From an uncultured Oscillospiraceae bacterium (lineage in GTDB: Bacteria; Bacillota; Clostridia; Oscillospirales; Ruminococcaceae), in the NCBI GenBank assembly GCA_949741215.1, contig CATJLA010000101.1, positions 5,355 to 69,354 on the forward strand: 64,000 nucleotides of DNA, in the 5' to 3' direction. A program made the translations under genes and the position numbers. Every line of letters starts with the position of its first letter. Within the stretch, counting starts at the first letter, position 1. The notes under the pieces were generated by a model, which had not been told where the DNA came from, searched no databases, and worked only from the letters and a program-made list of their open reading frames with translations. Shown here piece by piece: positions 5,906 through 63,005 of the stretch.

Positions 5906-5949
5906 GGGTTGTTCCTCACTTTTTCTGTCATTTTTAGGGACGTAAGCGC

Positions 5950-6873
5950 CTATTGTTCGCTTTCAAACAACGCCCGAACAAACTCTCCGGGAAGAAATGG
6001 CTGCAGATCGTCCAGCTGTTCCCCTACTCCTATATACTTGATCGGCACCCCAAGCTCCTCTTTAATGGAGATCACCACGCCTCCCTTGGCAGTGCCGTCC
6101 AGCTTGGTAAGGATGATGCCGGTAAGGCCCGCCGCCTCTCCAAACAGCTTAGCCTGGCTTACGGCGTTCTGGCCGGTGGTAGCGTCCAGCACCAAAAGCA
6201 CCTCCAAAGCGCTTTCCGGCGCCTCCCGCCGGATCACCCGAGAGATTTTGGCAAGCTCATCCATCAAATTTTTCTTGTTATGCAGCCGGCCCGCAGTATC
6301 GCACAATATAACGTCTACCCCTCGGGACTTACCGGCGGCAATGGCGTCATACACCACGGCGGCAGGGTCAGAGCCTTCCTTATGGCGGATCATCTCCACC
6401 CCGGCCCTGTCCGCCCAAATCTGCAGCTGGTCAATGGCAGCGGCCCGGAAGGTATCTGCGGCGGCCAGCAGCACCTGTTTGCCCTCGCTTTTCAGGTTAG
6501 CGGCCAGCTTGCCGATCGTAGTAGTTTTACCCACGCCGTTTACGCCAATTACCAGCACAATAGAAGGCTTTGTTGATAAATCCAGCCGGTTATCCCCTTC
6601 CAAAATTCCGGCAATAATCTCCTCCAGCAGTTCCTTTACCCGCTCTCCGTCGGTGACGCCCTGCTCCTTTACCGCCTTGCGCAGCCGGGTACAGATCTCC
6701 TCAGCGGTAAGCATCCCAACGTCGGAGAGAATCAAGGTTTCCTCCAAAGCCTCAAACAGCTCCTCGTCCACCTTGGTAAAGCTGTTGAATACCCGCTCTA
6801 CCTGCTTCATCATAGAGGCCTTGGTCTTTTTTAAGCCCTCACTAATTTTTTGAAAGAACCCCATTCTTTGCAT
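5950..6873 (-). CDS. ftsY: Signal recognition particle receptor FtsY
   Basis: SRP-GTPase motifs GVNGVGKTTTIGKLA, DTAGRLHNK and TKLDGTAKGG. The start is ambiguous (6873 or 6864). It overlaps the smc 3' end. Confidence 0.92.
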   Translation of the reverse strand: MQRMGFFQKISEGLKKTKASMMKQVERVFNSFTKVDEELFEALEETLILSDVGMLTAEEICTRLRKAVKEQGVTDGERVKELLEEIIAGILEGDNRLDLSTKPSIVLVIGVNGVGKTTTIGKLAANLKSEGKQVLLAAADTFRAAAIDQLQIWADRAGVEMIRHKEGSDPAAVVYDAIAAGKSRGVDVILCDTAGRLHNKKNLMDELAKISRVIRREAPESALEVLLVLDATTGQNAVSQAKLFGEAAGLTGIILTKLDGTAKGGVVISIKEELGVPIKYIGVGEQLDDLQPFLPGEFVRALFESEQ

Positions 6874-9800
6874 CCTTCCTTTCCTCTTGTGATTGCAGCA
6901 GCCGCTGCTCCGCCTCGGTAACGTTCAGCTCCAACAGCTTGGAAACTCCTTCCTCCTGCATGGTAACGCCGTACAGCATATCCGCCTCCTCCATAGTGCC
7001 CCGGCGGTGGGTGATGGCAATAAACTGCGTTTCGCCCGAAAGCCTGCGGAGATACTGGGCAAACCGCCCTACATTCACGTCATCCAGGGCAGCCTCAATC
7101 TCATCCAGCAAACAAAAAGGGGCCGGGCGCACCCTTAAAATCGCAAAGTAGATGGCAATCGCCACAAAGGCCTGTTCTCCGCCGGAAAGAAGCCCCAGGT
7201 TTTTAATCACCTTGCCGGGGGGCTCCACAAAAATGTCAATGCCGGATTCCAGCAGGTTGTCCGGGTCGGTTAAGGTAAGGCTGGCCCGCCCCCCGCCAAA
7301 TAAATCTACAAATATATTCGAAAATTCCTGCGCAATACGCTTAAAGTTCTCTCCAAAGGTTTGTTCCATGCTGCCGGTAAGCTGGGCAATCAGCTTGCGC
7401 AGCTCCTCCCGGGAGCGCTCTACATCCTCCAGCTGGCCCTTTAAGAAATTATACCGCTGAAAAACCTCCCTGTATTCCTCAATGGCCGAAAGGTTTACCG
7501 TTCCCAACCCCCGAATTTTATTCTTCAGCTCACTAACCTGGCCCTGGGCAAGCACTACGTTTTCCACCGGCCGTGCAAACTCCTCGGCTTCGGTACGGGT
7601 CAGCTGATACTCATCCCATAAGCCGGAGATAATCCTGTCATACTCTTCCTGAACCGATCTCTGCCGCTCCTCTGCTCTGGCCAGCTGCTGAGCAACCCCT
7701 TCTCTCTGGGAGGAAAGCTGCCGCTCCTCATTCCTCAGGCCGGAAACCTCCTTCTCCCGCTCCATCCTCAAGCGAGAAAGCTGCTCCCCCTGCTTTTGTA
7801 ACTGAGAAAGGCGCTCCGTCAACCGCTGCTTTTCTTCTGTTAAATCCTGCTGCCGGCTTTCCATTTCGTGACGTCGCACAGCCAGCTGCTTATTTTGCTC
7901 CTCCAGCTGCTCCATCCGGGCCTTCTGGTCCTGTCTTTGACGTTCATACTGGTCCTTTCGTTCCTCCAACGCCTTTTTGCTGCCCTGCAAAGCCGCCTGC
8001 TCCATTTCCAGGCCATGGCTCTGCTGGGTAAAGGCGGCGGTTTTCTCCTGGGCTTCGGCAATCCGGCGTTCCAGCCGCCCGGCCTCCTGTTCAAACTGAG
8101 CCATCTCCCGCCCCAGGCGTTCCACCAGCTCCCCGGCGCCGTCCTGCTCCTTAGAAAGCTGCTCCAGCCGCCCGGAAAGCTCCTGCAGGCTTTTTTCTGT
8201 CAGACGGCACTGCTTTTCCTGTTCCTCCAGGCTCAGGGCAAGTCGCTTCTGCTCCCCCTGGCACCGGATCTGATCCTGCTGTACCATCCTAACTTCTTCC
8301 TCCAGCAGCTTCATTTCCCGCAGCATTTTATCCCGCTGGGAGGCCGCCTCCGCCGCCCGCTCCTTCGCCCCGGTCAATTCCTCCTGAGAACGAGCAATCT
8401 TGCTTTGCAGCTGGGAAATCTCGTTCTTCCGGCTAAGCAGTCCCCCGGTTTTGCCGGAGGAGCCGCCGGTAAAAGAGCCCCCCGCGTTAATCACCTGTCC
8501 ATCCAGCGTGACGATGCGGAACCGGTAAGAAAACCGCTTGGCAATCGGCACCGCGCAGTCTAAATCCCGGGCCACTACCGTCCGCCCTAAAATGGAGTGT
8601 ACAATTCCCTGAAAGCGCCCCTCGCAGTCCACCAGGTCACTGGCAATGGCCACAAAGCCCTCACAGGAGGAAAGCCCCTGCTGCTCCAGCCGGGTTCCCC
8701 GTACGGACGTCAGCGGAAGGAAGGTAGCCCGGCCCTGGTTTTCCCGCTTCAGCAGGCTGATCGCCTGCTTAGCCGCCTGCTCATCCTCCACCACAATATG
8801 CTGGATGGCAGGCCCGCAGGCTGTCTCAACAGCAAGGGTGTACTCCGGCTCTACCCGAATCAGGTCCGAAACTGCGCCGATCACGCCCCTGAGCATCCCC
8901 CCCGCCGCCTGCCTCAGCAGGTAGCGAACACTGTTATAAAAGCCCTCATGGCTGCGCTCCATATCAGTATACAGCCGGGCCTTCTGCTCGTCCATCCGGA
9001 TCGCTTCCTCCAGCCCGGCAACCTCCCTGCGGCACTGCTCCGCCGTTTTCTCTCGGGAATCCAACAGCATTTTATACCCGCTCTGCCGGTTGTCCATCTG
9101 GGTCAGCTTCTGTTCAATCTGCGCCTCCAGCTCCCTTTCTTGGGCAAGTTCCTGTAAAGCCTGTTCCCGGGTTTGCCCCAGCTGCTCCAGCTGCTGCTCC
9201 AGGTCCTTTTGGCGCAAAGCTCCTTCCGCCAGCAGGCTCCGTGACGTCACCGACTGGATTTTTGCCTCGTTCTGAGCTGCCGCAAGCCCCTGCTTTTTGG
9301 CGGTAAGCTCGCCGTTTTGCTCCAGCAGCGCCTTTTCCTCCGCCCGGCCCTCAGCCAGCCTCTCTCCTGTCAGACAAAACTGCTCTTCCAGTTCCAGGCG
9401 CTTTGCTTCCAATTCCGCAAGCTCCCTGGCAAGCTCCCCCTCTTTCTCCGTAAGCTGATCATCGGAAAGCCCAGCCTCGGCAAACTGTATGGCAATCCGC
9501 TCCTTTTCCTGCTCCAAATGGCGCAGCTCATTCTCCAAAACCGCCTGATTCGACAAGTTTTCCGCCGATTTTTCCTCTGTCTCATGAATTTTAGCTCTGC
9601 CCTCTTCCAGCTGTACGCCGCAGCGGGTCATTTCCTCAAAGGCAGCGGCAATTTTCTGCTCCAGCTCCTCAAGCTGCTCTTCAGCCTGCTGTAAGCCGCC
9701 CCTTGTTTCCAAAAGCCGGTCCTCCTGCTCCCGCAGGCGGGCCTTAATCTGTTCCAGCTGCTTCATCCACAACGAGATTTCCAGCAGCTTCTTCTCCTCG

Positions 9801-10456: not shown

Positions 10457-10759
10457 CCGCCTGTTCTCCTTTTTCTCTGCCGGTAATTTCCATTCTCCTG
10501 TTTGGGACGCAACTGCGCCCGGTAGCCTGTACCTTTCCGGTAGGTTTTTCACAATTTCCCGGCTTCCTCTCAAGCCTTCCGTACTAAAACCAAAAAAGTT
10601 TTCTTCGCCTATTCAAAGATGTCAGGGGGTGCTGGAAGTCATGTCATCACTTCAAGCAAAACCCCATTCAGCGGACCGGCAAAACACCTAAGCCGCAAAA
10701 GCCTTTCTGCCCCAAAAACGCCATAATATGCACAAAACAACAAGGCAGCGCTCCCGTCC

Positions 10760-11830
10760 CTAAACCATGAAATTACTCCCCCTCTGCCGACGTCGCTGTT
10801 CCCTGCGGCTCAACACGCCGGTATAGGGCTTTATCTCAAAACTTCCGTCTGATACAGGGGTAATTTTTGCTACATCATAGCCCAAAGCTTTCCACCTTGC
10901 AACATTGCGGCGGTTTAATCCTGCCGCCTGGGAAAGCGCCCCCGGAGGAACGCAAAGCTCCAAGGGCAGTTCCGTCCCCAAAGGAAACTGCTGCTTTAAC
11001 CGTTCTGTCGCCCGTAAAAACCACCGTTCCCCCTCGCACAGCTCCCGAAAAGCAGGGTGATACGGCCCGCCCACAAGCTTCTGCTCCAGCTCCCGGCCCG
11101 GGTGCAGCCCTAAGCGGATCACCCGGATGCCCTGCTGCTCAAAAAAGTCCAGCAACCCGGCGCAAAGCTCCGCCGTTTCCTCCAATCCCGGGGGACGATA
11201 GCTGCCTTGGGCGTACCAGCGGCCCATCAGGGTATTCTCCAGGGCAAGGGCAGGGTAAATCCGCATCGTTGCCGGGCAAAGGGCGGCAAGCCTTCGGGCG
11301 GTCTCCCAATCCCGCTCCGGGGTGCTGCCGGGCAGGCCGGTCATCATCTGCAGGCCTAAGGCAAAGCCATGCTCCCGCAGCGCCTTTGCCCCGGCTTCCA
11401 CCTGGGCGGCAGTGTGGCCCCGCTGATTCAAAGCAAGCAGTTCGTCACACATGGACTGCGCCCCCAGCTCCACCGCCGTTACGCCGTATTTTTGCAGCAG
11501 CCTCAGGCGGTTTTCCTCCAGCGCGTCCGGCCTGGTGGAAACACGGATCCCCCAAAAGGGCGAGCGCTCCCGCCGGAGAAAAGGGGCCGCAGCCTGCAAA
11601 TATGCCTCCATCTCCTCTATAGGAATCGCAGTAAAGCTGCCGCCAAAAAAGGCGATTTCCCCCTCTATTCCCTGCTGCCGCCACTGATCAAAAGCCTGCT
11701 CACAGCTTTTTGCTACCTCCTTAGGCTCAGGGGGGCGCGGCGTTCCGGAAATGCTGTGCTGGTCGCAAAAGCTGCACCGATGAGGGCAGCCTGCATGGGG
11801 AATAAAAAAGCTGAGATTACCCCGCCTCAT
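10760..11830 (-). CDS. Radical SAM protein (ELP3/YhcC-like)
   Basis: N-terminal CPHRCSFCDQ (CxxxCxxC) cluster motif, 356 aa. The 4-nt overlap with rnc suggests translational coupling. Confidence 0.75.
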   Translation of the reverse strand: MRRGNLSFFIPHAGCPHRCSFCDQHSISGTPRPPEPKEVAKSCEQAFDQWRQQGIEGEIAFFGGSFTAIPIEEMEAYLQAAAPFLRRERSPFWGIRVSTRPDALEENRLRLLQKYGVTAVELGAQSMCDELLALNQRGHTAAQVEAGAKALREHGFALGLQMMTGLPGSTPERDWETARRLAALCPATMRIYPALALENTLMGRWYAQGSYRPPGLEETAELCAGLLDFFEQQGIRVIRLGLHPGRELEQKLVGGPYHPAFRELCEGERWFLRATERLKQQFPLGTELPLELCVPPGALSQAAGLNRRNVARWKALGYDVAKITPVSDGSFEIKPYTGVLSRREQRRRQRGSNFMV

Positions 11831-14634: not shown

Positions 14635-15984
14635 TTATTCCATATTTTTTAGGGACGTCCCGCATCCCTCATTCCGCAAAGCCTGTTCCAAATCCGCCAT
14701 AGCCCTCTCGGCCACCCGGAGATAGCGTTTCGCCTTATCCCTCTCCCGTTCGCCCAAGGGGGGCAGCAGCCCCATGTTGCTGCCCATGGGCTGAAAATCC
14801 TTCACCGCCGGATCACTGATATAGCGGCACAAAGCTCCCATCATGGTGGTAGGGGGCAGCTCAAAGGGTATTTTCCCCTCTAACTGCCAGGCCATATTCA
14901 GCCCCGCCCAAATGCCGGAGGCCGCAGATTCCATATACCCCTCCACACCGGTAATCTGCCCGGCAAAATAGATCCTCGGTTCCTTTTTCAGCCGGAAGCT
15001 CTGCTCCAACAGCCGGGGGCTGTCCAAAAAGGTATTGCGGTGCATTACCCCATATCGAACAAACTCCGCCGTCTCCAGCCCCGGAATCATGGAAAACACC
15101 CGCTTTTGTTCCCCAAACTTCAGGTTGGTTTGAAAGCCCACTAAATTATAGAGCGTTCCCTCCGTATTTTCCCGCCGCAGCTGTACCACCGCCCAAGGAC
15201 GATGTCCCGTTTTCGGGTCCCGCAACCCTACCGGCTTCAGGGGTCCGTAGCGCAGGGTATCCGGCCCTCTTCTGGCCATAATTTCCACCGGCATACAGCC
15301 CTCATACGCCTGGGGCCCCCTGCTGTCAAATTCATGCAGCTGAGCCTGCTCTGCGTGAACCAGAGCATCGTAAAAAGCCTCATATTCCTCCTTGGTAAAA
15401 GGGCAGTTGATGTAGTCATCCTCCCCCCGTCCATACCGGGCGGCAAAAAACACCCGCTCTTTTTGGATAGAAGCATATGAAACAATAGGCGCAGCCGCGT
15501 CATAAAAGCTGAGGTAGCCGGTTTCCTCCCCCAACAGCCGCCGGATCGCCTCCGCAAGCGGCTCGCTGGTCAACGGCCCTGAAGCAATTATCACCGGCCC
15601 CTTCGGTATCTCCGCCACCTCTTCCCGGACGATTTCTATCCCCGGGTGCTGCGCAATCTGGCAGGTCACTGCGTCCGAAAAGCGTTCCCTGTCCACCGCC
15701 AGCGCCCCGCCTGCCGCCACAGCGCAGCTTTTTGCCACAGGCACCAGCAGGGAGCCCAGCCGCTCCATCTCCGCCTTCAAAAGCCCGGCGGCAGAGCCTA
15801 ACCGCTGGGCCTTTAAGGAATTGGAGCAAACCAGCTCCGCAAACCCCGGGCTGCGGTGGGCCGGGGAATATTTGTGTGGCTTCATTTCATAAAGCCGCAC
15901 AAAATGTCCCCGGTTTGCCAGCTGCCAGGCCGCCTCACAGCCCGCCATCCCGGCGCCGATTACCGTAACCTCCGCCGTCATCAA
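14635..15984 (-). CDS. trmFO: Methylenetetrahydrofolate--tRNA-(uracil-5-)-methyltransferase TrmFO
   Basis: VIGAGMAGCEAAWQLA FAD-binding N-terminus, 449 aa, downstream of topA as in Firmicutes. The last 10 codons read through a copy of the intergenic motif, so the true stop context is worth checking. Confidence 0.9.
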   Translation of the reverse strand: MMTAEVTVIGAGMAGCEAAWQLANRGHFVRLYEMKPHKYSPAHRSPGFAELVCSNSLKAQRLGSAAGLLKAEMERLGSLLVPVAKSCAVAAGGALAVDRERFSDAVTCQIAQHPGIEIVREEVAEIPKGPVIIASGPLTSEPLAEAIRRLLGEETGYLSFYDAAAPIVSYASIQKERVFFAARYGRGEDDYINCPFTKEEYEAFYDALVHAEQAQLHEFDSRGPQAYEGCMPVEIMARRGPDTLRYGPLKPVGLRDPKTGHRPWAVVQLRRENTEGTLYNLVGFQTNLKFGEQKRVFSMIPGLETAEFVRYGVMHRNTFLDSPRLLEQSFRLKKEPRIYFAGQITGVEGYMESAASGIWAGLNMAWQLEGKIPFELPPTTMMGALCRYISDPAVKDFQPMGSNMGLLPPLGERERDKAKRYLRVAERAMADLEQALRNEGCGTSLKNME

Positions 15985-18077: not shown

Positions 18078-18480
18078 AGCAATCCATCTACCGCCTTTCC
18101 ATAATTTCAATGGGTTAAAGCTATCGCTTTTCAGGCAATTTTCTTTCCTTTTAGTATAATCTATCCTTATTTATCCATTCAGGACGTCGCACCGCTGGTT
18201 GTGCCGTGCCCATCCTCTCATCTGCAAAGCTTCCAATTTCGTCCTGCAGCCGAAAACGAAATCAAAGCGCCTACATCTGTTACAGGCTATGCAGAACAGA
18301 ACTTCAAAAACACTTTGTATTAAACAAACCTTCCCGCATTTTGCCTGCCTCCAGTGAATTTTCAGCCAGATCCAAAGCGAGAAACGGCAAATCGGCAGTT
18401 TCGTCCCAAAAACGGAAATAAAATTACCTGAAAAAAGATAGCCCTCGGGTACTTCTTTCCCAGAAGTATTCCCCTTTTTG

Positions 18481-18951: not shown

Positions 18952-20292
18952 TCAGCCAAGCCGCAAAAACCGCCCGCCGGAGCAGGCTTCCGCCAGGCCC
19001 AGCAGCTCCAGCTCGGTCAGCACTGCCATCAACCGCGCTATGGGGATCCCGGTGGCTCCGGCAATTTCCGCCGGGTAGCAGGGAGTGCTACCTAAACAAA
19101 GATACACCTGCTGCTGCTCAGAAGTCAAGCCCTCCGGCGGCTCTGGGGGCAAATTTCCCCTTTCCAAAAAAGATTTTTCCTCAAAATTGCCTGTCCCCTC
19201 TAAGGCAAAAGGGTTTTCCTCCGGCAAATCCTCTCCCGGCAGAATCGCCCGCCTGCTGTCCGTCTTTGGCAAAGCGGCCGCCTTCCGCTTTTTCTGCGGG
19301 ACAGGAGTGGGCACCTCCAACCGAAGCTGCTCGTTTACCGGCTCCCGCTCTGCCAAGCTGTAATCATACACCGAGAGGATGTCCTCCGGCTTAGCAACCG
19401 GCACAGCCCCCTCCTGCAGAATCTGCACACAATACTGGCCTGCAGGGTTCATCAGGCTCCAGGGCAGTACAAACAGGTCTTTCCCCTGCTCCTGGGCATA
19501 CCGGGCGGTAATGGCCGCCCCGCTTTTAGGGGAAGCCTCCACTACCACCACTCCGGCCGAAAGCCCGGAGATCAGCCGGTTTCTCGGCGGGAACAGCCTG
19601 CCATCCGGGTAAGTATCCGGCGGGTACTCGCTGAGAATCGCCCCCCGATCCCGGGTTTCCATCCGCAGGCCTCGGTTATCTTTGGGGTAATCGGCCAGTA
19701 AGCCGCAGCCCAGCACCCCCACGGTTTTCCCCCCGGCAGAAAGAGCCCCCGCATGGCAGGCAGAATCAATGCCCATAGCCATGCCGCTTACCACCACCGC
19801 GCCGCTTTGGGCAAGGCGGCAGGCCATACGATGTCCCAAAGCGAGCCCCTCGCCAGTAGGAGACCTGGTACCCACCATACCGATCAGCAGTTTATCGGTA
19901 AGCAGATCCGGGTTGCCCCACAGGTACAAAACCAGCGGCACCCCCCGAATCTCCCGCAGCTGCGGCGGAAAGTTTGGGTGGGAAAACGGCAGCACCAGAA
20001 TATCATTTCTCTTACACTGGCGCAAAATTTTCTCTGCCCGCTCATAGTTGGGGCAGGCCAGCTGATCCAGCTTATTTTTGCGCATGGCCGGCATTTTGCG
20101 CCAAGCCCCCTCCCCGGCCTGCAAAAAGCTTTGGGCAGTGGGGTAATTCGCCGTTACATAATCTGCCCGGGTAGAACCAGGCGTAAAAATATCCTGTAAC
20201 GCTATGGCACAGCACAGCTCCTCCTTATGCTCTTGCCCCCACAGATCCTGCTGTTTCAAGCCCTGTTCTCCCCTTCCTGTTACCAAAATCAT
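18952..20292 (-). CDS. dprA: DNA processing protein DprA (Smf)
   Basis: Central Rossmann-like domain with GMVGTRSPT...VVSGMAMGIDSACHAGAL...LFPPRNRLISGLS and a C-terminal winged-helix-like tail. The start is uncertain. Confidence 0.88.
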   Translation of the reverse strand: MILVTGRGEQGLKQQDLWGQEHKEELCCAIALQDIFTPGSTRADYVTANYPTAQSFLQAGEGAWRKMPAMRKNKLDQLACPNYERAEKILRQCKRNDILVLPFSHPNFPPQLREIRGVPLVLYLWGNPDLLTDKLLIGMVGTRSPTGEGLALGHRMACRLAQSGAVVVSGMAMGIDSACHAGALSAGGKTVGVLGCGLLADYPKDNRGLRMETRDRGAILSEYPPDTYPDGRLFPPRNRLISGLSAGVVVVEASPKSGAAITARYAQEQGKDLFVLPWSLMNPAGQYCVQILQEGAVPVAKPEDILSVYDYSLAEREPVNEQLRLEVPTPVPQKKRKAAALPKTDSRRAILPGEDLPEENPFALEGTGNFEEKSFLERGNLPPEPPEGLTSEQQQVYLCLGSTPCYPAEIAGATGIPIARLMAVLTELELLGLAEACSGGRFLRLG

Positions 20293-20333
20293 TTTTCTTC
20301 CGGGGACGTAACAGCAGCCCCATCATCCTCTTG

Positions 20334-22008: not shown

Positions 22009-22204
22009 AGCCGGTCTGTAGCTCCGGCTTTTTGGGGGGACAGGACTGCACAGCCGTATTCTGTGCGCAAACCGCAGGCCCGCCCAAGCTTTTATACTGG
22101 ATTCTAATAGTTACGCGCAAAGCCTTATTTTTGCATGGGGCATGGCGACGTCCCCTATGCAAAACCATGGCTTTGCACATAAAACCGGCACCTTTTTCGG
22201 CTGA

Positions 22205-23679: not shown

Positions 23680-23787
23680 CACTTTTTTACCTTTTTGTGG
23701 GACGTAAGCGGAAGCTTTATCGCTTTAAGCCTGCAGTTACGTCCCCCAAAACTTTATGATTGGCTCACGGACGCGCGATTTTCCTTA

Positions 23788-30777: not shown

Positions 30778-30931
30778 TTATTTATACCAAATCCCATTTT
30801 TCGGGACGTAACTGCCGCCTTTTCATCTCATGCCAGCGTTTTTCTCCCCTTTCCAGCGTGGTCAAACGAATTTCTCTCCCTGTAAAGGGTGGACGAAATG
30901 GTTTTCGCGTTCCCCCGCCCTAACTAAACGC

Positions 30932-31767: not shown

Positions 31768-31830
31768 GGCAATCCTTCTCTCTCCGTAAAAGTTATGCTT
31801 TGGGGACGTACCTGCCCACTTCCGTCCCCC

Positions 31831-32445
31831 TTAAAAGAACGGAATTCTGGTGGTAGGCTGAGGCGGCGTCAGCTTCAGTCTGCTTACCACCGGCAGCATC
31901 ATCTGAAAAAACAGCACCAGCACAATTACCTCAACGGGCAACATGCCGATATTTTTTATCAGGCTTTTGGTCAGATAATAAAGATACCCCTTGCCATACA
32001 GAATGGTGCTCCACAACGCCCCTAACCCCACGTTTACCAGCAGATTTACGCAGATTTTACACAAAGTAATCCGCAAAACCGTGATTCTGGCGCGGTAAAA
32101 GAACACCGCGTAGGTAAAAGCACCCATCATGGTGGTAAGGGTGTAACCAGGAAAAAACTCCCCCGTGGGGTGAATAATATACCCCAAAATATCGCTGACA
32201 AACCCTGTACCCAGAGATACCACCGGCCCATAAATCAGCGAACCAAGGGCATTTACAAAAAAACTGAAATAGATCCGCTGGTTCTCCCCGATCGGGATAA
32301 AAAAAGACGAAATCACAATTCGCAGGGCCACCAGCAATGCGGCCACAGCCAGCATCCGCAGCTGTTTGCCCTCCCGGACGGCAGTTTGCCAGTACTCTTT
32401 GGTAAAGGGCAGCGGGAAAAGCTTTGTCTTACTTGGTTCGGTCAC
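31831..32445 (-). CDS. folT: ECF transporter S component, folate family (FolT-like)
   Basis: Multi-TM protein with the typical FolT-like sequence FFIPIGENQRIYFSFFVNALGSLIYGPV... It is preceded by a THF riboswitch. I chose the GTG start at 32445, 8 nt after GAGGAGG. The track ORF is longer. Confidence 0.75.
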   Translation of the reverse strand: MTEPSKTKLFPLPFTKEYWQTAVREGKQLRMLAVAALLVALRIVISSFFIPIGENQRIYFSFFVNALGSLIYGPVVSLGTGFVSDILGYIIHPTGEFFPGYTLTTMMGAFTYAVFFYRARITVLRITLCKICVNLLVNVGLGALWSTILYGKGYLYYLTKSLIKNIGMLPVEVIVLVLFFQMMLPVVSRLKLTPPQPTTRIPFF

Positions 32446-32566
32446 GGTAAAAACCTCCTCACAATGCTGGGGACGTAACAGCTGCGGGACGTCCCGGAAG
32501 CAGAACCGGGAGCCCAAAAGGCAAAAAACACCTGCGGCACAGCAAAACTGTTTTTGCCTCACAACT

Positions 32567-36050: not shown

Positions 36051-36129
36051 CCTCAGGTTCTCCTTTTTCTTTGGTTTTAGGACAGAAGCGGGCAGGGTGG
36101 TGCAGGGGTTTCTCTAATTATGTCGATTT

Positions 36130-37174: not shown

Positions 37175-37282
37175 CCATGGGGCTTTCAACAGGGCCGCGG
37201 AACAGTAAGAGCTGTTTCGTCCCCCAAAAAGCCGAAAAATGGTGTAAAGCTGCGCCCAAACGGGCAAAAAAGGAGGATTTTT

Positions 37283-37836: not shown

Positions 37837-37887
37837 GCTCCCGGCTCACGACGTCCCTGAAAAGACGCCGGAGCCGGGAGCTTTTAT
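37837..37887 (+). terminator. Rho-independent terminator after rbr
   Basis: AGCTCCCGGCTC, a 22-nt loop, GAGCCGGGAGCT, then TTTTA. The loop contains ACGACGTCCCTGAAAAGACG, a copy of the intergenic motif. Confidence 0.8.
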
Positions 37888-37915
37888 ACGGAAGCCCGGC
37901 AAAATAAACCGGCTG

Positions 37916-38866
37916 TTACGTCCCGGAGGCAGGCGCCGGAATATGCTGCTCCAGCCAATCCAGCAGGTTTTGATAAACCTCCGCACGGTTGGTTTCGTTC
38001 AGCATTTCATGCCGTCCCTCATGGTACAGGCGCAGAGAAACCTCCCGCACCCCTGCCTGACGCAGCTGCTTTACCACCTTTTCCACCCCTTTGCCATAGC
38101 TGCCCACCGGGTCCTGGTCCCCGGAGAAAAAGTATACCGGCAGCTGCTTGGGGTACCGCTGAAACCATTCTTTTGTATTGGAAAGCCGGTTGAGCAGAAA
38201 CAAATCCCGATATGCGCTGGCAGTAAAGGTAAAATTGCAGTAAGGGTCCTGGCAGTAGCGGTCCACCATTTCGGTATCCCGAGAAAGCCAGTCCTTATCG
38301 GTACGCTGGGGACGAAAGTGGCTGTTGTAGGTGCCAAAGGCCATCTGTGTTACCATTTGGGGACGGTAGCGCACCCCTTTTTTCCGGATAACCTGATCCA
38401 CAATCCCGATCCCCACCGGGCCTGCGGGGTTGCCGGCCCCGGTACCGGAATAAACAGCCCCGGCCAGAAAATCCTTCATCTCCAAGGTTGCCAGCCTTGC
38501 CACAAAGGAGCCCATGCTGTGGCCCATCAAAAAGTACGGCAGCCCCGGGTGCTCTTTGCGGATCATCTCCGCCAGCAAAGTGACGTCCGCAATCAGATAT
38601 TTGTAGCCGTCCTTTGGGGCAAAATAGCCCAGGTTTTCCTCTGAGCCGGCGGTTTTGCCATGGCCCAGGTGATCATGCCCCACAACGATATACCCCGCCT
38701 GAGCCAGATATTCCATAAAATCCCGGTAACGGTCAATATACTCGCACATGCCGTGTACGATCTGCACAATGCCCTTTACCGGCTGCCCGTCGTCCGGCTG
38801 CACCTGGAGATAGGAAACCAGGGTTTTGCCGTCAGACGACACAAAGCTGTCGTTTGTAATTTTCAT
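37916..38866 (-). CDS. Alpha/beta hydrolase (lysophospholipase/monoacylglycerol-lipase-like)
   Basis: HGMCEYIDRY...GHDHLGHGKT...MGHSMGSF (GxSxG nucleophile elbow). 316 aa. Confidence 0.8.
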   Translation of the reverse strand: MKITNDSFVSSDGKTLVSYLQVQPDDGQPVKGIVQIVHGMCEYIDRYRDFMEYLAQAGYIVVGHDHLGHGKTAGSEENLGYFAPKDGYKYLIADVTLLAEMIRKEHPGLPYFLMGHSMGSFVARLATLEMKDFLAGAVYSGTGAGNPAGPVGIGIVDQVIRKKGVRYRPQMVTQMAFGTYNSHFRPQRTDKDWLSRDTEMVDRYCQDPYCNFTFTASAYRDLFLLNRLSNTKEWFQRYPKQLPVYFFSGDQDPVGSYGKGVEKVVKQLRQAGVREVSLRLYHEGRHEMLNETNRAEVYQNLLDWLEQHIPAPASGT

Positions 38867-39503: not shown

Positions 39504-39560
39504 GAAAAAAAGCGCCTGCCCCCGCTTTCTGTCCTTTTAGGACGTAAGCGGGGGCAGGCG
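39504..39560 (-). terminator. Strong (bidirectional-looking) terminator after the CotH gene
   Basis: AAAAAAA-GCGCCTGCCCCCGCT, a 20-nt loop, AGCGGGGGCAGGCG. The loop is ttctGTCCttttaGGACgta, a copy of the intergenic motif. Confidence 0.85.
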
Positions 39561-45899: not shown

Positions 45900-45949
45900 T
45901 GCTTTTACAGGGGACGTGACAGCCGCTTTTTGTTCTGTGGGCCAAAGGT

Positions 45950-49859: not shown

Positions 49860-49891
49860 GCACAGTTATTTGTGGAAAAGGACTTGATTTT

Positions 49892-50605
49892 ATGATACAA
49901 ACAAAACGTTTTTGGGGCATTTTGGTCTTGCTTTGGGCCATTTTGATAGCGCTTTTACTGGCTTTTACAGAACCTTGGGCAGAAAATGAGCCTGATGATC
50001 GCAGTGCCGTCAAAAAAATTATAGCGGATTTACCTTCATATCAGGCGCAAATACAGCAGTGGGACGTGACTGCCGCGGTATATCTCGTGCCAAAGGAGGA
50101 GCCTGAAGATTGGCTTGGAAAACGGTATTGTTGGGCAAAAATCTCCCAGCCGGTGCTTACTTTAACCAATGAAAACGGCGGAACCTGGTGCTTTTATACC
50201 GGCTTTGATCAATATGTAGAGGAGAAAATTGTAGAAGATGATGAAAACGGGGAGAAAACTGTCACTTTGGTTATTAAAAAGAGACAGATAGAAAAGCCTC
50301 CCAGATGGGAAAATACGGAAAAAGATCCGGAGAGCTCCCGGTATTATGACGTGGAGGTTTCCGTAATTGTAAAGCCCGGAGAGGAGAGCTGGTCGGATCA
50401 AAGCTGGTATCATACTTATTACTCCAGCAGTAATTTTACCGAATGCAAATATTATTTCGGTGATGCATGGGTGGATATGGACAAGAAAAACCGGAACAAT
50501 GACCAGCATATCAAAAAGTGGTACACAGATCAGGAGATGTTGGAGGCTTATCGGAGAGGGCTGGAACTGGGGGAGCTGTTACGTCAGCTAAGCTTGGAAG
50601 AATAG
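49892..50605 (+). CDS. Hypothetical membrane-anchored protein
   Basis: N-terminal TM KRFWGILVLLWAILIALLLAF, then an acidic, Trp/Tyr-rich soluble domain. No family recognised. Confidence 0.6.
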   Translation: MIQTKRFWGILVLLWAILIALLLAFTEPWAENEPDDRSAVKKIIADLPSYQAQIQQWDVTAAVYLVPKEEPEDWLGKRYCWAKISQPVLTLTNENGGTWCFYTGFDQYVEEKIVEDDENGEKTVTLVIKKRQIEKPPRWENTEKDPESSRYYDVEVSVIVKPGEESWSDQSWYHTYYSSSNFTECKYYFGDAWVDMDKKNRNNDQHIKKWYTDQEMLEAYRRGLELGELLRQLSLEE

Positions 50606-51794: not shown

Positions 51795-52072
51795 AGGTTT
51801 TTTCCTCCATTTCGGATATTTTTTCCCTTGGGAGTGCTTTCCCCGGTAGGCCCAGGGAACCGCTTCCTTCCATAGTTTGTGTGCTTTGGGGCAATTTATA
51901 CAGGGTGTTTTCGGTTTTCCCGGTTTTACTGGTTTTCTACCTTATTCTACACCGGCTTTTAGGACGCAGCTGCGTCCGGAAAGCTTTGTGCATAAAGGCA
52001 GGCTGCCACACAAATAGTATAGCATAAAACGACAGCTTTTGACATCCCGGGCATACAAAAAAGCTTTGATGA

Positions 52073-52534: not shown

Positions 52535-52715
52535 AAAAATCACCTCACAGCACATTGTGCGCGAATGCTTCCCTCTCTATTCCAGGCAGCTACTTCCAGC
52601 CTGGCGTTGGGACGTTGCGCAGGCCTGCGGTGCAAAGCTCTGTTTCAAAGTATAAAGCATATTTTTTGCGCAAAGCATCGGGACGTCCGGCAAAAAAACT
52701 GGCAGAAATTTGTGC

Positions 52716-55437: not shown

Positions 55438-55712
55438 TACAAAACGCAAGCTTTTGGGACGGTACTGCCGCATTATTTTCTCCGGGTAACCGGGGGAGCT
55501 TGTACCGTCCCTGAATAATGGCCGTAGGCGGCCGAAAAAAGGACGAGCGAGAAGCGATTGCTTTTCTGCTCGTCCTTTCATTATTATAGCTTAGCTTTTG
55601 ATAGAAAGTTATCTTTATTAATAGTATGATCAGCTCTCTTCTACAACAGAAAATTCTAATGTATTATTTTGCTTCTTTTTACATTAGAATAATCTAAGAG
55701 GGGTGATGTAAA

Positions 55713-55895: not shown

Positions 55896-55920
55896 TACAT
55901 ATGCCAGACTATAAGAATCG

Positions 55921-56799: not shown

Positions 56800-57120
56800 G
56801 TGAAAAAGCTACAGGAAATGAGCAAACGCACCTACGAGTGGTTAGAGGGCCTGCTGGAATTGGAGGAGTCTTCCCCAGAAGTACAGCGCTTTTTTCAAGG
56901 ACGAAGCGCAGATTTTGATCTCTGCGGCGAGTCTCATCAAGCGATATACGAGGCCAGGGAGAGGCTGCTGGACAAGCTGCATGCCGAGGAGGATACCGAT
57001 TTGGAGATTATATTGGTGGAGTTCTATCACATCAGCCGGAAGATGTGCGAAAGGGCTTTTCATTTCGGGGCAGAGTATGCTGCCGGCCAATGCACAAAGC
57101 TAACCGCAGCAGAGGACTGA
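56800..57120 (+). CDS. Hypothetical small acidic protein, divergent from the XRE gene
   Basis: GTG start 7 nt after GAGGA. 106 aa, helical and acidic (EWLEGLLELEESSPEVQRFF...). No family recognised. Confidence 0.45.
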   Translation: MKKLQEMSKRTYEWLEGLLELEESSPEVQRFFQGRSADFDLCGESHQAIYEARERLLDKLHAEEDTDLEIILVEFYHISRKMCERAFHFGAEYAAGQCTKLTAAED

Positions 57121-57309
57121 CCGACGTCCATAAAATGAACCGCAGGCTTTAAGAAAAACCGGGGAAAAGCCCAAACCGGAAAGTCTTATCATAACGTTCC
57201 TCAAAATCTGTTCTACAGGGGTACACGATTCCCTATTAACTCTTCCTTTTTACTGGAAATTGGTGTAAAATAAAAAAAGCCTGAAAAAGGCTGAAAAAAG
57301 GAGGAATTG

Positions 57310-58903: not shown

Positions 58904-59431
58904 ATGGAGGCTTGGGCGACGCTTTGTAGAGTTCTTTTTTGAGACGGATCCAATATTCCTTGATAAAAATCCTTTGCCAAAAGGCCAAAAACTGGCGGAT
59001 TTCCTTATTTTATTTCTCTGATAACAGGAAATTTCTTTGTTAAAAGCGGAAATTTGACCATTATCCCCAGTTTTTCGGCAAAAATTCGGCAAATGATTTC
59101 TCTTTTCTACAATGAAATTTTACGACTTTTCCCCTATACAAGTCTTTTTGGGGAATGCTATAATATAAGAAGCTGTGTCAATCGCCATTCACAGCATTTT
59201 TGGGGCGGGTCTGTTTGATCTATATGCCCCGGCTAATGGCACCATTTTTAGGACAGACTGCAGTGGGAGGCTGAAAGCCAAAAGCGCTGTCATGTCCAGC
59301 AAAACCGGATAGTAAGTAAGGAAACGAGTGAAAAACGGAATGTGCAGTGCGGAGGTTTCTTTTCCGGGACCGGCTGCGACCGGCTTGAAAGAAACAACGG
59401 AAGCCGCCTGCAAAAGAAAGGATAAGGAAAA

Positions 59432-61816: not shown

Positions 61817-61910
61817 TAAAAGCACAGACCAAGTTCGAAAATACGCTATTACAAAGTGTGTTTTGTATACATTGTACTAAAATCAACAAAATTGTTTGGA
61901 GGTAAAATTT

Positions 61911-62834
61911 GTGAATTCAAAGAGATTTTGGGGTATTTTGCTCTGTTTTTGCCTGGTTTTACCCGTTTTTTCTCTAACCGGGTGCACTCGTGAGATTACC
62001 GGCTCCGATAATAGCTCAAAGCCTATGGATGCTGTCACGTCCCAAAGCAGCTCTGATATTTCAGAGAGCAGCGCGCCAAATGCCAGCGAGCCGCCCTCCC
62101 AAAGCTGGAAGGAGCTGGATACCGACGAAGCCGTGCAGGAGGCTGTGATCCATACCGTTTTAGAGCGGGAGCAGGGGGTATACTATCCCGGAGAGTTTCA
62201 GGGGGCGGCGTGCCTTTTGTTTGATGCCTTGCCCAACCAGGATGGCTCCCTGGCGGTATTTGCCCTGGTAGAGTACATTGAGTACAGCTTTATTAACAAC
62301 AGCTTTACCAATGTAGGCGGCTTCCGCAACCGGATGCGCATTGATTTTGCCCAGGAAAACGGGGCTTATACCGCCATTTTGTACGAGCATCTGGATGTGT
62401 CGTTTCAGTCCGACCAGCGCTTAGAGGAGCTGCTGGCCCCACTGCAGGCCACCGGTACCGATTACACTTACACCGATGAGGACTTTGCCGGTTTGCGGGC
62501 TCAGGTGGACGAAACTGCTGGGGAATATCTCCGGCAGATCGGCAGGGAAAACCGGCGAATTGTAGATAACAGTGAGCTGGGGCTTACCTATCTGAACGAA
62601 GTCGGCGTGGAGGATGAAATCATCGACCAGCGGGCCGAGGATCTGCAAACCACCCTTTATCCGGACTGGATTGGCACCCAGGAGCGGCTGGAGGACGACA
62701 TGCGCTTGATCTATCAAACCGATTATGACGCTGAAAATCATCGGATCATCTACATCAAGCACCAGTATGGGCTTAGCACGCCCATAGAAACCCTCGCCTT
62801 TGATGCCGTTACCGGAGAGGCCATAGAGCTTTAA
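61911..62834 (+). CDS. Hypothetical lipoprotein
   Basis: GTG start 7 nt after GGAGGT. The signal peptide has a lipobox, FSLTGC. No family recognised. Confidence 0.6.
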   Translation: MNSKRFWGILLCFCLVLPVFSLTGCTREITGSDNSSKPMDAVTSQSSSDISESSAPNASEPPSQSWKELDTDEAVQEAVIHTVLEREQGVYYPGEFQGAACLLFDALPNQDGSLAVFALVEYIEYSFINNSFTNVGGFRNRMRIDFAQENGAYTAILYEHLDVSFQSDQRLEELLAPLQATGTDYTYTDEDFAGLRAQVDETAGEYLRQIGRENRRIVDNSELGLTYLNEVGVEDEIIDQRAEDLQTTLYPDWIGTQERLEDDMRLIYQTDYDAENHRIIYIKHQYGLSTPIETLAFDAVTGEAIEL

Positions 62835-63005
62835 CCCCTTTTCCTTTTTAGGCTTGTGGGACGTCAGTGGTATTTTCCCTATTCTGTAAAATGCGGCCAG
62901 TCTACCCACACCTTTAAGCAAAGCGGACGAACCTTCTTTTTTCGTCTCCGGTGCACCTATATAATAGCATCAGGAAAATAGCCTGCAGTCACGTCCCCAA
63001 ACAAC

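Follow-up and report, generated by a model that had tools for sequence, protein, structure and literature searches.

A recurrent T-run and GGGACGT motif between the genes of an uncultured Clostridia genome, tentatively read as a lineage-specific DNA-level tag

What is the short GGGACGT-containing sequence that recurs between the genes of an uncultured spore-forming Clostridia genome, and what could keep it there? Every statistic given here is drawn from a single 64-kb stretch of that genome (herein the window). Coding and non-coding DNA were partitioned using gene calls that we made from codon usage, a few of whose starts were adjusted to family alignments; whole-window counts, taken on both strands, were compared with dinucleotide shuffles, and intergenic counts, from 10.4 kb in total, with order-1 and order-3 Markov models. 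GGGACGT occurs 28 times in the window against 3.97 ± 2.19 in the shuffles (shuffle maximum 11), and GGGACGTRACWGC with up to two mismatches occurs 31 times against 3.29 ± 1.87 expected; ten copies of this 13-mer are exact (20303+, 23733-, 30803+, 32470+, 37912-, 45911+, 50061+, 50660-, 62031-, 62985-). The density is ∼1 7-mer per 2.3 kb and ∼1 exact 13-mer per 6.4 kb. Intergenic DNA holds 17 of the 7-mers (0.6 expected under the order-1 and 3.0 under the order-3 model) and 16 of the 13-mers with up to two mismatches (0.4-0.9 expected); seven exact 13-mers lie in spacers, where the order-3 model gives none, and a tally from these counts puts the per-base intergenic bias at ∼8-20 fold. The T-run + GGGACGT motif is a real recurrent intergenic element, present about once per gene gap. 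The original prediction had described this recurrence and asked for a composition-matched null; the enrichment is upheld by the shuffles, and the intergenic counts lie far above both Markov expectations. All 17 strings that it quoted sit exactly where it placed them.

The repeated unit spans ∼24 bp of non-coding sequence and consists of a T-run, 0-3 nt and (G)GGGACGT-RAC-WGC-NGC; outside it, no homology was found between copies in the window. We count the upstream T-run as part of the motif because 15 of 18 sites carry one, compared with a 26% background (P = 7e-7). Downstream T-runs are present at 9 of 18 sites (P = 0.03), 5-9 of 18 copies have a T-run at each end, and A-runs are depleted on both flanks. 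The spacing from T-run to core varies, while the core itself is short and non-palindromic with sharp boundaries, and single copies are unstructured (fold z-scores +0.3 to +1.4). At five to seven loci the motif forms a palindrome or a convergent inverted pair, the spacers being unrelated and of variable length; in the inverted pairs the T-runs lie outside and a 3' T-run is absent, so that they are not canonical terminators. Downstream of GGGACGT the copies fall into discrete subtypes (RACWGCNGC, RAGCGS, CGY, CCC), and TAAC and TGAC versions segregate, with 5/5 TAAC at 20-38 kb and 5/5 TGAC at 45-63 kb, a pattern more suggestive of copies descended from one another, or of local gene conversion, than of substitutions that arose independently. 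In one reading frame, motif positions 7-9 form a stop codon (TAA or TGA), which limits the coding use of the motif. The sites are collected in Table 1.

Table 1. Motif copies in the window, intergenic and genic
Position	Strand	Element	Setting
5931..5950	+	TTTTTA-GGGACGTAAGCGCC, RAGCG subtype	directly after ftsY stop codon, 30 nt upstream of rdgB start
10497..10519	+	GTTT-GGGACGCAACTGCGCC, 1 mismatch	∼50 nt upstream of likely smc start
10966..10978	-	TTTCCTTTG-GGGACGGAACTGC, 1 mismatch, own T-run	in radical-SAM gene
14581-14598		TTTTTAGCGGACGATACC, weaker copy	by trmFO-tail palindrome
14645..14661		TTTTTTA-GGGACGTCCC, palindromic	last codons of trmFO ORF (C-terminal extension)
18393..18412	-	TTTTT-GGGACGAAACTGCCG, 1 mismatch	topA-dprA spacer
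20292..20319	+	TTTTTCTTCCG-GGGACGTAACAGCAGCC, exact	adjoins dprA start region
22029..22157	+, -	two copies: TTTTTGGG-GGGACAGGACTGC (+, 2 mismatches); GGGGACGTCGCC (22148-22157, -)	spacer upstream of rplT; first copy just 3' of hairpin
23690..23755		convergent inverted pair TTTTTGT-GGGACGTAAGCGG...CTGCAGTTACGTCCC-CCAAAA	folds as hairpin, z = -3.8; 19 nt upstream of infC promoter TTGACA-17-TATAAT
30796..30819	+	ATTTTTC-GGGACGTAACTGCCGCC-TTTT, exact	between aroD terminator and addB promoter region
31799..31831		GGGGACGTACCTGCCCACTTCCGTCCCC, inverted pair	63-nt folT-aroD spacer, z = -2.8
32469..32495	+	GGGGACGTAACAGCTGC, then directly palindrome GGGACGTCCC	folT 5' leader, between THF riboswitch/terminator and RBS of folT (GTG start 32445)
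36075..36092	+	TTTTAGGACAGAAGCGGG, weak variant	divergent spacer, downstream of hydratase gene promoter TTTACA-17-TATAAT
37211..37230	-	TTTTTGG-GGGACGAAACAGC, 1 mismatch	between two + strand genes
37851..37926	-	two direct copies: TTTTCA-GGGACGTCGTG; exact GGGACGTAACAGCCGG	first in loop of rubrerythrin terminator; TAA of second is stop codon of hydrolase gene 37916-38866
39535..39554	+	TTTTAGGACGTAAGCGGGGG	loop and 3' arm of terminator-like hairpin after CotH-domain gene
45903..45931	+	TTTTACAG-GGGACGTGACAGCCGC-TTTTT, exact	convergent spacer, ∼20 nt 3' of terminator hairpin
50061..50076	+	exact	in ORF 49892-50605, sense strand, read as W-DVTAA
50657..50688	-	TTTTTTGCCCTTTGCG-GGGACGTGACAGCTGC, exact	convergent spacer, 16 nt past strong terminator of pdaA-like gene
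51957..51977		TTTTA-GGACGCAGCTGCGTCC, palindromic variant	z = -3.4
52609..52695	+	two direct GGGACGT copies (52609, 52680), second GGGACGTCCGGCAAAAAAA	second 28 nt upstream of blaI promoter -35
55452..55511		inverted pair TTTT-GGGACGGTACTGCCGC...GTACCGTCCC	19 nt after blaR1 stop, z = -4.0
58372 and 61224		weak variants akin to those at 59245..59298	
59245..59298	+, -	weak variants TTTTTAGGACAGACTGCAG (+), TGGACATGACAGC (-)	upstream of Na/Pi transporter gene
62028..62043	-	exact	in ORF 61896-62834, antisense, read as DAVTS; low-complexity stretch shortly after lipobox-like LTGC
62845..63005	+, -	convergent inverted pair, 140 bp apart: GGGACGTCAGTGG (+, 62858); GGGACGTGACTGCAGGC (-, ending 62997)	second copy follows strong bidirectional terminator
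5497, 14248, 34732, 39204, 39646, 40098, 42100, 46364, 50575, 54429, 62506 (starts)		other copies, ≤2 mismatches	in genes

Occupancy was counted over 35 gaps of at least 40 nt, with strict and loose criteria kept separate. Loosely scored, 26 of the 35 hold a copy where their lengths predict 16.6 (P < 5e-5), an excess that persists when long spacers are capped (P = 0.0002-0.02), and all four convergent gaps carry the motif; the copy originally noted in almost every intergenic region amounts to 26 of 35 gaps by the loose score and 18 of 35 by the strict one. Single copies lie just 3' of strong terminators and inverted pairs near gene ends, and across the window sites the spacing to promoter, ribosome-binding site or terminator is not constant, and neither is the orientation relative to transcription. 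The predicted + strand majority survives as a weak intergenic excess (∼12 + versus 6 -, palindromes counted once), while overall the 7-mer is near parity (15 + versus 13 -). A tally of the site list for co-directional spacers gives ∼13-15 copies antisense and ∼8 sense to the flanking genes, a weak and nonsignificant difference.

The motif is also over-represented within genes, 3-5 times and beyond synonymous-codon expectation. Genes hold fourteen 13-mers with up to two mismatches, where codon permutation predicts 2.9 and synonymous shuffling 4.6 (P < 0.003), and the excess (z = 5.6) lies above the maximum of 3.6 reached by 200 column-permuted control motifs. These copies occupy all three frames and both orientations. 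Exhaustive counting gives 11 strict 7-mers in coding sequence (4.7 expected, P = 0.006) where about five had been reported, a figure that takes in both strands of the TrmFO-tail palindrome and a copy whose sequence supplies a stop codon. The hexamer GGGACG is itself frequent in genes (47 of 67 copies). Alignment with PDB homologues revealed no motif-sized insertion in any of the three testable genes (hydratase, Vat and RdgB), which indicates that these genic copies arose by substitution.

The motif fits no known repeat or regulator family, in line with the earlier failure to match it to a regulator box, and no Rfam family matches it. A REP/BIME-like repeat, one of the explanations first offered, is disfavored: its defining feature is missing, as single units are not palindromic, and the copies have neither flanking homology nor a conserved doublet spacer. 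The REP/BIME, MITE, operator and RNA-element readings each break down on one defining test. No enrichment was seen in 94 loci from the nearest available relatives, and neither the motif nor a dialect of it was found in relatives represented in databases, which hold no close relative; the motif is lineage-specific and missing from its nearest known relatives.

Our preferred reading starts from the observed over-representation, anatomy, genic excess, even spread, lack of structure and lineage specificity. With low confidence, we suggest that the motif may be a lineage-specific DNA-level tag rather than a mobile element, an RNA element or an ordinary operator. A sequence-specific DNA-binding protein would read the ∼17-bp asymmetric core (G)GGGACGT-RAC-WGC-NGC in T-rich strand context; copies would be created by point substitution anywhere on the chromosome and would persist in permissive sequence, mostly intergenic DNA and loose gene parts, giving an even spread of ∼1 copy per gene boundary. 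Whether the motif belongs more broadly to DNA tags that a protein reads and that are kept up across the genome is, in our view, an even call. An uptake signal proper, suggested by analogy, is possible but doubtful. Both a DNA-binding-protein site and a DNA-uptake-type sequence had been put forward originally; both are compatible with the data and are supported by the genic excess, even spread and T-rich flanks. Against uptake, only dprA lies in the window. Against a tag made by substitution, several copies read T-run, 16-mer, T-run, as insertion with target duplication would give, and the TAAC and TGAC versions occupy separate regions. Also against this reading, no relative with the motif or a dialect was found, although the collections contain no close relative.

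A somewhat less probable rival that stays in contention is a miniature duplicative element with REP/REPIN-like behavior. An enzyme acting in trans, its gene elsewhere in the genome, would copy a ∼16-17-bp unit into T-tracts, either the tails of terminators or A/T tracts that precede promoters. Both single and paired copies would result from insertion, and any function would be secondary. The lineage-specific and overwhelmingly intergenic distribution, the sharp core boundaries with flanking T-runs resembling target duplication, the regionally clustered subfamilies, the convergent inverted doublets and the copies that reach into a gene end or lengthen it, as in the TrmFO tail and the 37916 stop codon, all suit such an element, and one target per spacer would account for the one-per-spacer spread. 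REPs favor unidirectional and convergent spacers and occur occasionally in genes (PMC3733652), preferences that the motif shares. The unit, however, is non-palindromic and offers no stem-loop to a Y1/HUH enzyme, doublet spacers are unrelated and variable in length, T-run spacing varies, genic excess extends to all frames without an indel in the testable genes, and no transposase gene lies in the 64-kb window. We know of no mechanism that moves a 16-bp non-palindromic unit, which also counts against copying.

Less probable still, though also in contention, is that an abundant sequence-specific DNA-binding protein inside the cell occupies the motif once per gene boundary, as a nucleoid-associated or boundary/insulator-type factor or to recruit topoisomerase; topoisomerase recruitment has been proposed for REP/BIME. 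Such sites would explain roughly one locus per spacer whatever its length, the fully occupied convergent spacers and the orientation-independent occurrence that extends into genes. A T-tract beside a GC-rich core would suit bending plus specific contacts, and the palindromic variants GGGACGTCCC and GGACGCAGCTGCGTCC suggest half-site logic. Yet ten exact 13-mers in 64 kb are far more uniform than we would expect nucleoid-protein sites to be, no positional rule relates them to promoters or terminators, the window encodes no candidate protein, and absence of the motif from related genera means that the factor would need lineage specificity too.

An RNA-level element, whether the target of a small RNA or RNA-binding protein or a processing/termination signal in untranslated regions, is very improbable. 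Many copies do fall within 5' leaders (those of folT, the hydratase gene and dprA) or within 3' trailers, with the weak antisense bias noted above, but that bias is not significant, single copies are unstructured and without an Rfam match, and genic copies lie on both strands. Other copies lie past strong terminators or upstream of promoters (e.g., 30803, 23699 and 52680), where little or no transcript is expected; the RNA-binding-protein site proposed earlier is disfavored for this reason, and its orientation is inconsistent. An explanation by codon usage, terminator stems or base composition alone, without any discrete entity, could appeal to the GC-rich stems and T-runs common in spacers and to the genic frequency of GGGACG, but is effectively refuted, as no shuffle reached the observed counts, the order-3 spacer null gave no exact 13-mers and column-permuted controls behaved otherwise.

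The systems closest to the proposed DNA tag are the USS and DUS of Pasteurellaceae and Neisseriaceae, in which a DNA receptor at the surface favors "self" DNA bearing the tag, and the tag is driven to high, even density by recombination together with the bias in uptake. To our knowledge, sequence-specific DNA uptake has been described in only these two Gram-negative families. The intergenic bias of USS/DUS, as generally understood, is much weaker than the ∼8-20 fold per base seen here, and the motif is in this respect far more intergenic; its short non-palindromic core, found on both strands in about equal numbers, is DUS/USS-like. Haemophilus influenzae has 1,465 nine-bp USS cores and Neisseria meningitidis 1,892 ten-bp DUS (PMC7811141), and the density of the motif, counted as 7-mer or exact 13-mer, is in the same range. 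USS are abundant and relatively evenly spread, and AT-tracts contribute to their function (PMC7811141); the motif is likewise abundant and even, and its T-rich flanks are analogous to those tracts. DUS and USS occur as terminator-associated inverted pairs (PMC3630211, PMC1852404), and the motif also forms inverted pairs near gene ends, with singles past terminators, although its pairs, unlike many of theirs, are not canonical terminators. Finally, a stop codon in one frame limits the coding use of DUS (PMC3630211), a feature that the motif shares.

With both strands counted, the 64-kb window contains 28 copies of GGGACGT, a heptamer within the motif (a T-run followed by (G)GGGACGT-RAC-WGC-NGC), compared with 3.97 ± 2.19 (maximum 11) in dinucleotide-preserving shuffles; the 13-mer GGGACGTRACWGC with up to two mismatches gives 31 matches against 3.29 ± 1.87. 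On our own gene map, which consists of codon-usage calls with a few starts corrected via family alignments and the position of a riboswitch, non-coding DNA amounts to 10.4 kb (16%) of the window. This fraction holds 17 of the 28 heptamers (expected 0.6 under an order-1 and 3.0 under an order-3 Markov model) and 16 of the 31 13-mer matches (expected 0.4 to 0.9). An unbiased k-mer comparison of spacers (intergenic gaps) with genes independently brings out GGACGTA, GGGACGTA, ACGTCCCC, and TTAGGAC. The over-representation in spacers claimed in the original prediction, whose quoted strings were all checked and found in place, is thus upheld; the motif is real and statistically overwhelming. If the window is typical, extrapolation would give roughly 150 exact 13-mers and 440 heptamers per Mb genome-wide.

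Alignment of the copies defines a shared core of ∼17 bp, (G)GGGACGT-R-AC-W-GC-N-GC, at the end of which similarity ceases. In 15 of 18 good intergenic copies, a T-run of three to six residues lies upstream and stops 0 to 3 nt short of the G-run (background 26%, P = 7e-7); the 12 nt downstream of the core are T-rich in 9 of 18 (P = 0.03), and A-runs are scarce beside it (1/18 and 0/18 on its two sides). The motif therefore lies on the locally T-rich strand, and several copies show a T-run / 16-mer / T-run layout. The 3′ part of the core falls into subtypes, which are listed with all positions in the table. The CGY subtype also accounts for an excess of the palindromic hexamer GACGTC in spacers (13 occurrences; 0.6 expected under order-1, 4.6 under order-3), which often takes the form GGACGTCGY after a T-run and overlaps the main motif family in part. 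Neighboring copies resemble one another: exact TAAC copies all lie at 20 to 38 kb (5/5) and exact TGAC copies all at 45 to 63 kb (5/5; chance 2/252, noticed post hoc), the RAGCG subtype lies mostly at 5.9 to 39.5 kb (4/5 copies), and GGACA variants cluster at 56 to 61 kb, the region in which weak forms like TTTTAGGACAG(A)C abound. This regional clustering hints at local copying, gene conversion, or a different ancestry of the two halves. As variation at positions 8, 11, and 14 of the motif has a period of three, a coding origin (translation DVTAA/AAVTS) was tested; it is ruled out by stops in all six frames around the copies and by the lack of a shared ORF.

Most copies are singletons; four exact ones were folded, and their z-scores (+0.3 to +1.4) show no advantage over shuffles. 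Paired (inverted) or palindromic copies, at 5 to 7 of about 30 loci, give folds with z = −2.4 to −4.0, in which the T-run and the A-run of the partner lengthen the stem. Paired copies always face each other with their T-runs outermost, giving a 5′ T-run and a 3′ A-run as flanks; the sequences between them measure 0 to 126 nt and are unrelated. Because they are without a 3′ T-run, the pairs are not canonical terminators.

Positions of motif copies and of other elements in the window
Feature	Position	Remarks
Exact GGGACGTRACWGC copies	20303+, 23733−, 30803+, 32470+, 37912−, 45911+, 50061+, 50660−, 62031−, 62985−	n = 10
T-run / 16-mer / T-run layout, examples	30803, 45911, 55456, 62997	
Exact singletons folded	20303, 30803, 45911, 50672	
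Subtype RACWGCNGC		ten exact copies and one-mismatch relatives
Subtype RAGCGS	5937, 21031, 23699, 39539, 61546	
Subtype CGY		about seven copies
Palindrome subtype GGGACGTCCC	14652, 32486	
GACGTC in spacers, examples	2286-2291, 18181-18192, 45817-45830, 48838-48850, 48918-48927, 57122-57130	
Convergent inverted pairs or palindromes	23699/23745, 31803/31828, 51961/51978, 55456/55511, 62858/62997, 14652, 32486	
Copies past strong terminators	45911, 50672, 62997, 22037	13 to 20 nt past
Copies inside terminator loops	37856, 39539	
Copies upstream of a −35 box	23699 (infC), 30803 (addB), 52680 (blaI)	19 to 28 nt upstream, beyond the A-tract
Copies in 5′ leaders		folT (riboswitch terminator-to-RBS interval), hydratase gene, dprA
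Copies in short operon-internal gaps	5937, 31803, 61229	
Copy across a gene end	37924	its TAA serves as stop codon for a hydrolase gene
Copy across a gene end	14652	palindrome, in the 11-residue TrmFO tail past the family alignment
Genic copies alignable with solved homologs	34732 (hydratase), 14248 (Vat), 5497 (RdgB)	
SpoIIID-like weak variants	59248, 58379, 36077	TTAGGACAGAC, CAGGACAAGAC, TTAGGACAGAAGC, respectively
parS sites, TGTTTCACGTGAAACA	20530-20545, 46736-46751	perfect, 16 bp, both in spacers
107-nt repeat	18587-18693, 20415-20521, 49765-49871	∼107 nt, 67 to 82% identical
Likely folT GTG start	32445	− strand; region with leader and THF riboswitch, 32445-32806
Cys/His-rich ORF	33084-33647	− strand, 187 aa
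Low-GC island	∼55550-56800	no called genes in our map
63-nt repeat in the island	55917, 56256	79% identical

Copies were found in every type of non-coding context, and no fixed distance to promoter, RBS, or terminator was found across the copies in the window. Of the 35 spacers of at least 40 nt, 26 are occupied under loose and 18 under strict criteria; length-proportional placement would fill 16.6 (P < 5e-5) and 12.6 (P = 0.001), respectively. Short spacers (≤120 nt) are occupied seven times, with 2.5 expected. Some of the long spacers conceal unannotated small genes; with long spacers capped at 400 or 250 nt, the even spread persists (P = 0.0002 to 0.02). A strict copy is present in all four convergent spacers; among the four divergent spacers, only one or two have such a copy. 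The original prediction had placed most copies on the + strand; a weak tendency of this kind stands, but overall the heptamers divide into 15 + and 13 −. Co-directional spacers carry about 13 to 15 antisense and 8 sense copies, a difference that is not significant. GC skew runs at −0.13 to −0.21 up to ∼32 kb, where all genes are on the − strand, and then at about 0 to +0.08 over genes on mixed strands. A replication-linked orientation of the motif was rejected, the strand counts being balanced and the shift in GC skew coinciding with the switch in gene strand.

Two of these sites deserve separate description. At 14635-14670, the trmFO ORF outruns the family alignment, which stops at residue 438 of 449, by ∼11 codons that take in GGGACGTCCC with its A-run and finish with TAA; the motif seems to have become part of the TrmFO C terminus. 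Upstream of folT, the THF riboswitch (79 bits) lies ∼240 nt before the likely GTG start, and the long leader contains a terminator-like hairpin and then, directly ahead of the RBS, two motif copies side by side. The start of the longest ORF, at 32562, is probably not the true one.

Genes contain 14 of the 13-mer matches (two or fewer mismatches), compared with 2.9 expected from codon permutation and 4.6 from synonymous-codon shuffling (P < 0.003). Not one of 200 column-permuted control motifs reaches this ratio of 3.05 (z = 5.6), their maxima being 2.31 and z = 3.6, and the excess is therefore not an artifact of codon usage. All three frames are used; ten copies are sense and four antisense, a ratio about as in the null, and five of the 14 have a T-run of their own. 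The genic heptamers likewise number 11 where 4.7 are expected (P = 0.006), with three in addB alone (0.5 expected). In all three proteins that could be aligned with solved homologs, the hydratase (an aconitase-family protein), Vat, and RdgB, a motif-sized insertion is absent, and these copies are therefore substitutions. They carry one or two mismatches, and some may be chance occurrences. The two exact genic copies both fall in proteins that are specific to the lineage and belong to no family; one of these copies sits in a low-complexity stretch shortly after a lipobox-like LTGC.

The window comes from a housekeeping region in the chromosome of a spore former of the Clostridia. Its genes include nadD-yqeK, rdgB, ftsY, smc, rnc, plsX, vat, trmFO, topA, dprA, rplT, infC, addA, addB, aroD, folT with the THF riboswitch upstream, and blaI/blaR1, together with two spore-former markers, a pdaA-like deacetylase and a CotH-domain protein. 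The two parS sites (0.08 expected), together with smc, suggest that the window is origin-proximal; no dnaA or origin features were seen in it. An IF-3-anchored scan of species genomes yielded 80 loci at ≤82% identity, the best matches among species-representative genomes being uncultured Oscillospiraceae, Ruminococcaceae, and Acutalibacteraceae. The best match in an AddA-anchored metagenome scan was 52%; a search with AroD among 5.8 billion proteins returned the identical sequence only, followed by one at 53%; and L20, AroD, and rubrerythrin each form a singleton cluster at 90% identity. By these results, no close relative of the lineage is on record, which limited all downstream analysis. Conservation in sister genomes, a point raised with the original prediction, was followed in 94 loci, 1.4 Mb in all, drawn from the closest genomes and metagenomes that could be retrieved, all distant (IF-3 ≤82%, AddA ≤52%, AroD ≤53%): neither GGGACGT, TTAGGAC, nor GACGTC is enriched there, and the only lineage-specific 9-mers in the related loci are codon repeats. 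Viral contigs scanned for TTTNGGGGACGTRACWGC gave four single matches, which is chance level. The only other sequence of the lineage found in any collection is a 5.2-kb Logan contig (SRR30663422) from a second strain, which is 99.75% identical to positions 27509-32751, with no indels. Its 13 substitutions are all genic and the three motif-bearing spacers are identical (fewer than two differences expected there); with a divergence this low, the contig is uninformative.

The window holds three further elements of note. The 107-nt repeat, with two copies flanking dprA and one following tRNA-Ser, is the only longer repeat in the window and is distinct from the motif. Its predicted fold comprises two hairpins and shows little covariation, and the two copies searched (18.1 to 20.8 kb) have no Rfam match. 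The repeat may be a small RNA or a miniature element. The low-GC island, bounded on its left side by the motif pair 55456-55511, contains two paralogous small ORFs (the 63-nt repeat) and a small − strand ORF that by eye resembles an XRE-type repressor. The island is probably a small inserted element, mobile or toxin-antitoxin-like. Beside the hydratase gene, an ORF missed by the gene caller encodes a signal-peptide-like start, then many repeats rich in Cys and His (HTHC, SHSHC), and lastly a tail rich in His; its product is possibly a secreted metal-binding protein.

On this analysis, which covers 64 kb of an orphan lineage, the motif looks most like a DNA word that would be read by a protein and kept across the chromosome by selection or drive. 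The asymmetric, unstructured core, its AT flanks, the equal use of strands, the genic excess by substitution in all frames, and the even spread all argue for such a word; the preference for permissive DNA, the inverted pairs near gene ends, and the lineage specificity also count toward it. We tentatively rank first the possibility that the motif works like the DNA uptake sequences (USS and DUS) of Pasteurellaceae and Neisseriaceae, to our knowledge the only systems with the full profile; the analogy is functional, and membership is not claimed. The only competence-related gene within the window is dprA. The most far-reaching form of this reading, which seems to us improbable, would make the motif the first “self-DNA” tag of the uptake-signal type in a bacterium of Gram-positive type (Clostridia, Oscillospirales-like): the competence machinery or some other DNA receptor would recognize the T-tract and the 17-bp core, and biased uptake with recombination would drive the motif to about one copy per gene boundary. 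Against uptake stand the spacer bias of about 8- to 20-fold per base, the discrete 3′ subtypes, the positional segregation of TAAC and TGAC, and the T-run / core / T-run appearance of several copies. These features lend some weight to miniature insertion into T-tracts, a rather doubtful explanation that we place second; the three alignable genic copies are substitutions. Third, a site for an intracellular boundary or nucleoid protein would fit the one-per-boundary spread, and we regard it as unlikely.

The palindromic extragenic repeats (REP, BIME, and REPIN), an option named in the original prediction, fared less well. CGTC-tagged REP families have 8- to 9-bp stems and 4- to 5-nt loops and are mostly doublets, and GTAG types accompany genes for REP-associated Y1 transposases (RAYT) (PMC3733652). 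Like these repeats, the motif is species-specific, high-copy, and mainly extragenic (17/28 heptamers and 16/31 13-mer matches in 16% non-coding DNA); it favors unidirectional and convergent spacers and gene 3′ ends, forms some inverted doublets, and has occasional genic copies. Its reverse complement, ACGTCCC, happens to include CGTC, but with no adjoining stem. Unlike them, it is no palindromic unit with a GTAG or CGTC tag: it has no 8- to 9-bp stem with a 4- to 5-nt loop, and its singletons are unstructured (z = +0.3 to +1.4). Doublets are a minority (5 to 7 of about 30 loci) and, with unrelated spacers of 0 to 126 nt, have no conserved geometry, and the genic excess comes without indels. 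No transposase or RAYT was found among the scanned genes of the 64-kb window. We rejected membership of these families on the unstructured unit, the doublets, and the indel-free genic copies. A MITE, an IS remnant, or any longer repeat was rejected since flank alignments and a repeat finder gave no homology past ∼24 bp and the flanks of pairs are inverted (T-run...A-run), not direct.

Chromosome-wide words such as Chi, KOPS/SRS, parS, NBS, and matS share with the motif that they are read by proteins and lie in genes and spacers alike. The motif is much longer than Chi or KOPS and, unlike the polar words (Chi, KOPS/SRS), has no strand skew (15 + and 13 −), on which ground these were rejected; compared with parS, NBS, and matS it is far denser and not palindromic, and the genuine parS sites of the window are separate sequences. 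A transcription-factor operator was rejected: even in the three clear cases the distance to the −35 box ranges from 19 to 28 nt, further copies occupy convergent spacers, the loops of terminators, and gaps inside operons, the motif is far too dense, and no conservation of it was found in the related loci. The SpoIIID box of endospore formers is WWRRACAR-Y, idealized as TAGGACAAGC. The host is a spore former, and weak variants of the motif, and these only, resemble this box, but the dominant GGGACGT-RAC-WGC departs from the ACA core, one copy per spacer beside housekeeping genes exceeds any regulon, and the position relative to promoters is not fixed; the likeness is treated as a chance resemblance. 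An RNA element was rejected because there is no orientation rule, some copies lie in probably untranscribed DNA, and no Rfam family fits: in an Rfam 15 scan of the window only the THF riboswitch and tRNA-Ser reach threshold, and 18.1 to 20.8 kb gave no match at E ≤ 1. A polar roadblock-terminator (a T-run upstream of a protein site) fails on the too inconsistent orientation to flanking genes. By eye, against consensus sequences, the σ54 −24/−12 element has the wrong spacing, the ECF −10 CGTC has no −35 box, and CggR (CGGGAC-N6-TGTC), the LytTR, WalR, and TnrA half-sites, the DnaA box, matS, parS/NBS, the −1 frameshift heptamer, and similarity to 16S CGTAACAAGGTAGCC all fail. The earlier statement that no known regulator box matches is consistent with this for the boxes considered.

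The uptake sequences offer the closest comparison. Haemophilus influenzae has 1,465 nine-bp USS cores with AT-rich flanks and Neisseria meningitidis 1,892 ten-bp DUS, in both cases abundant and relatively evenly spread (PMC7811141). Their intragenic copies lie in permissive regions, one reading frame contains a stop codon, and pairs in inverted orientation are associated with terminators (PMC3630211, PMC1852404); within genes, uptake sequences have orientation and gene-terminus biases (PMC2346458). The motif shares with them a short asymmetric core at hundreds of copies per Mb, on both strands equally (28 heptamers, 10 exact 13-mers, 15 + and 13 −), and, with USS, an AT-tract flank. It also shares the relatively even spread, spacer enrichment, inverted pairs near gene ends, and lineage specificity, as well as a stop codon in one of the frames and genic copies in several frames, in excess of coding constraint (14 vs. 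4.6, z = 5.6). Unlike USS and DUS, it resides in a Gram-positive-type Clostridia host for which no uptake specificity is known; its spacer bias is much stronger, its core, with discrete 3′ subtypes, exceeds theirs in length and degeneracy, and its pairs, having T-runs outside and no 3′ T-run, do not look like canonical terminators. Family dialects, which USS and DUS have, were not seen in the 94 distant relative loci.

Each of the three readings would carry its own consequence. An uptake or self-recognition tag would extend sequence-specific uptake to Firmicutes and imply a new receptor, a 16-bp insertion would point to an unknown copying mechanism, and a boundary-protein site would represent a new form of bacterial chromosome organization. 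In metagenomes, the motif provides a sharp signature for binning and tracking the lineage. It is not explained by any family tested and is a variant among dispersed short bacterial repeats. Well-studied species-specific short repeats are nearly all REP-type palindromes or the uptake sequences found in two families of Gram-negative bacteria. The present 17-mer, which is asymmetric, unstructured, and T-flanked, comes from an uncultured, spore-forming Clostridia lineage of gut type; present about once per gene boundary and also favored in genes, it fits neither class cleanly.
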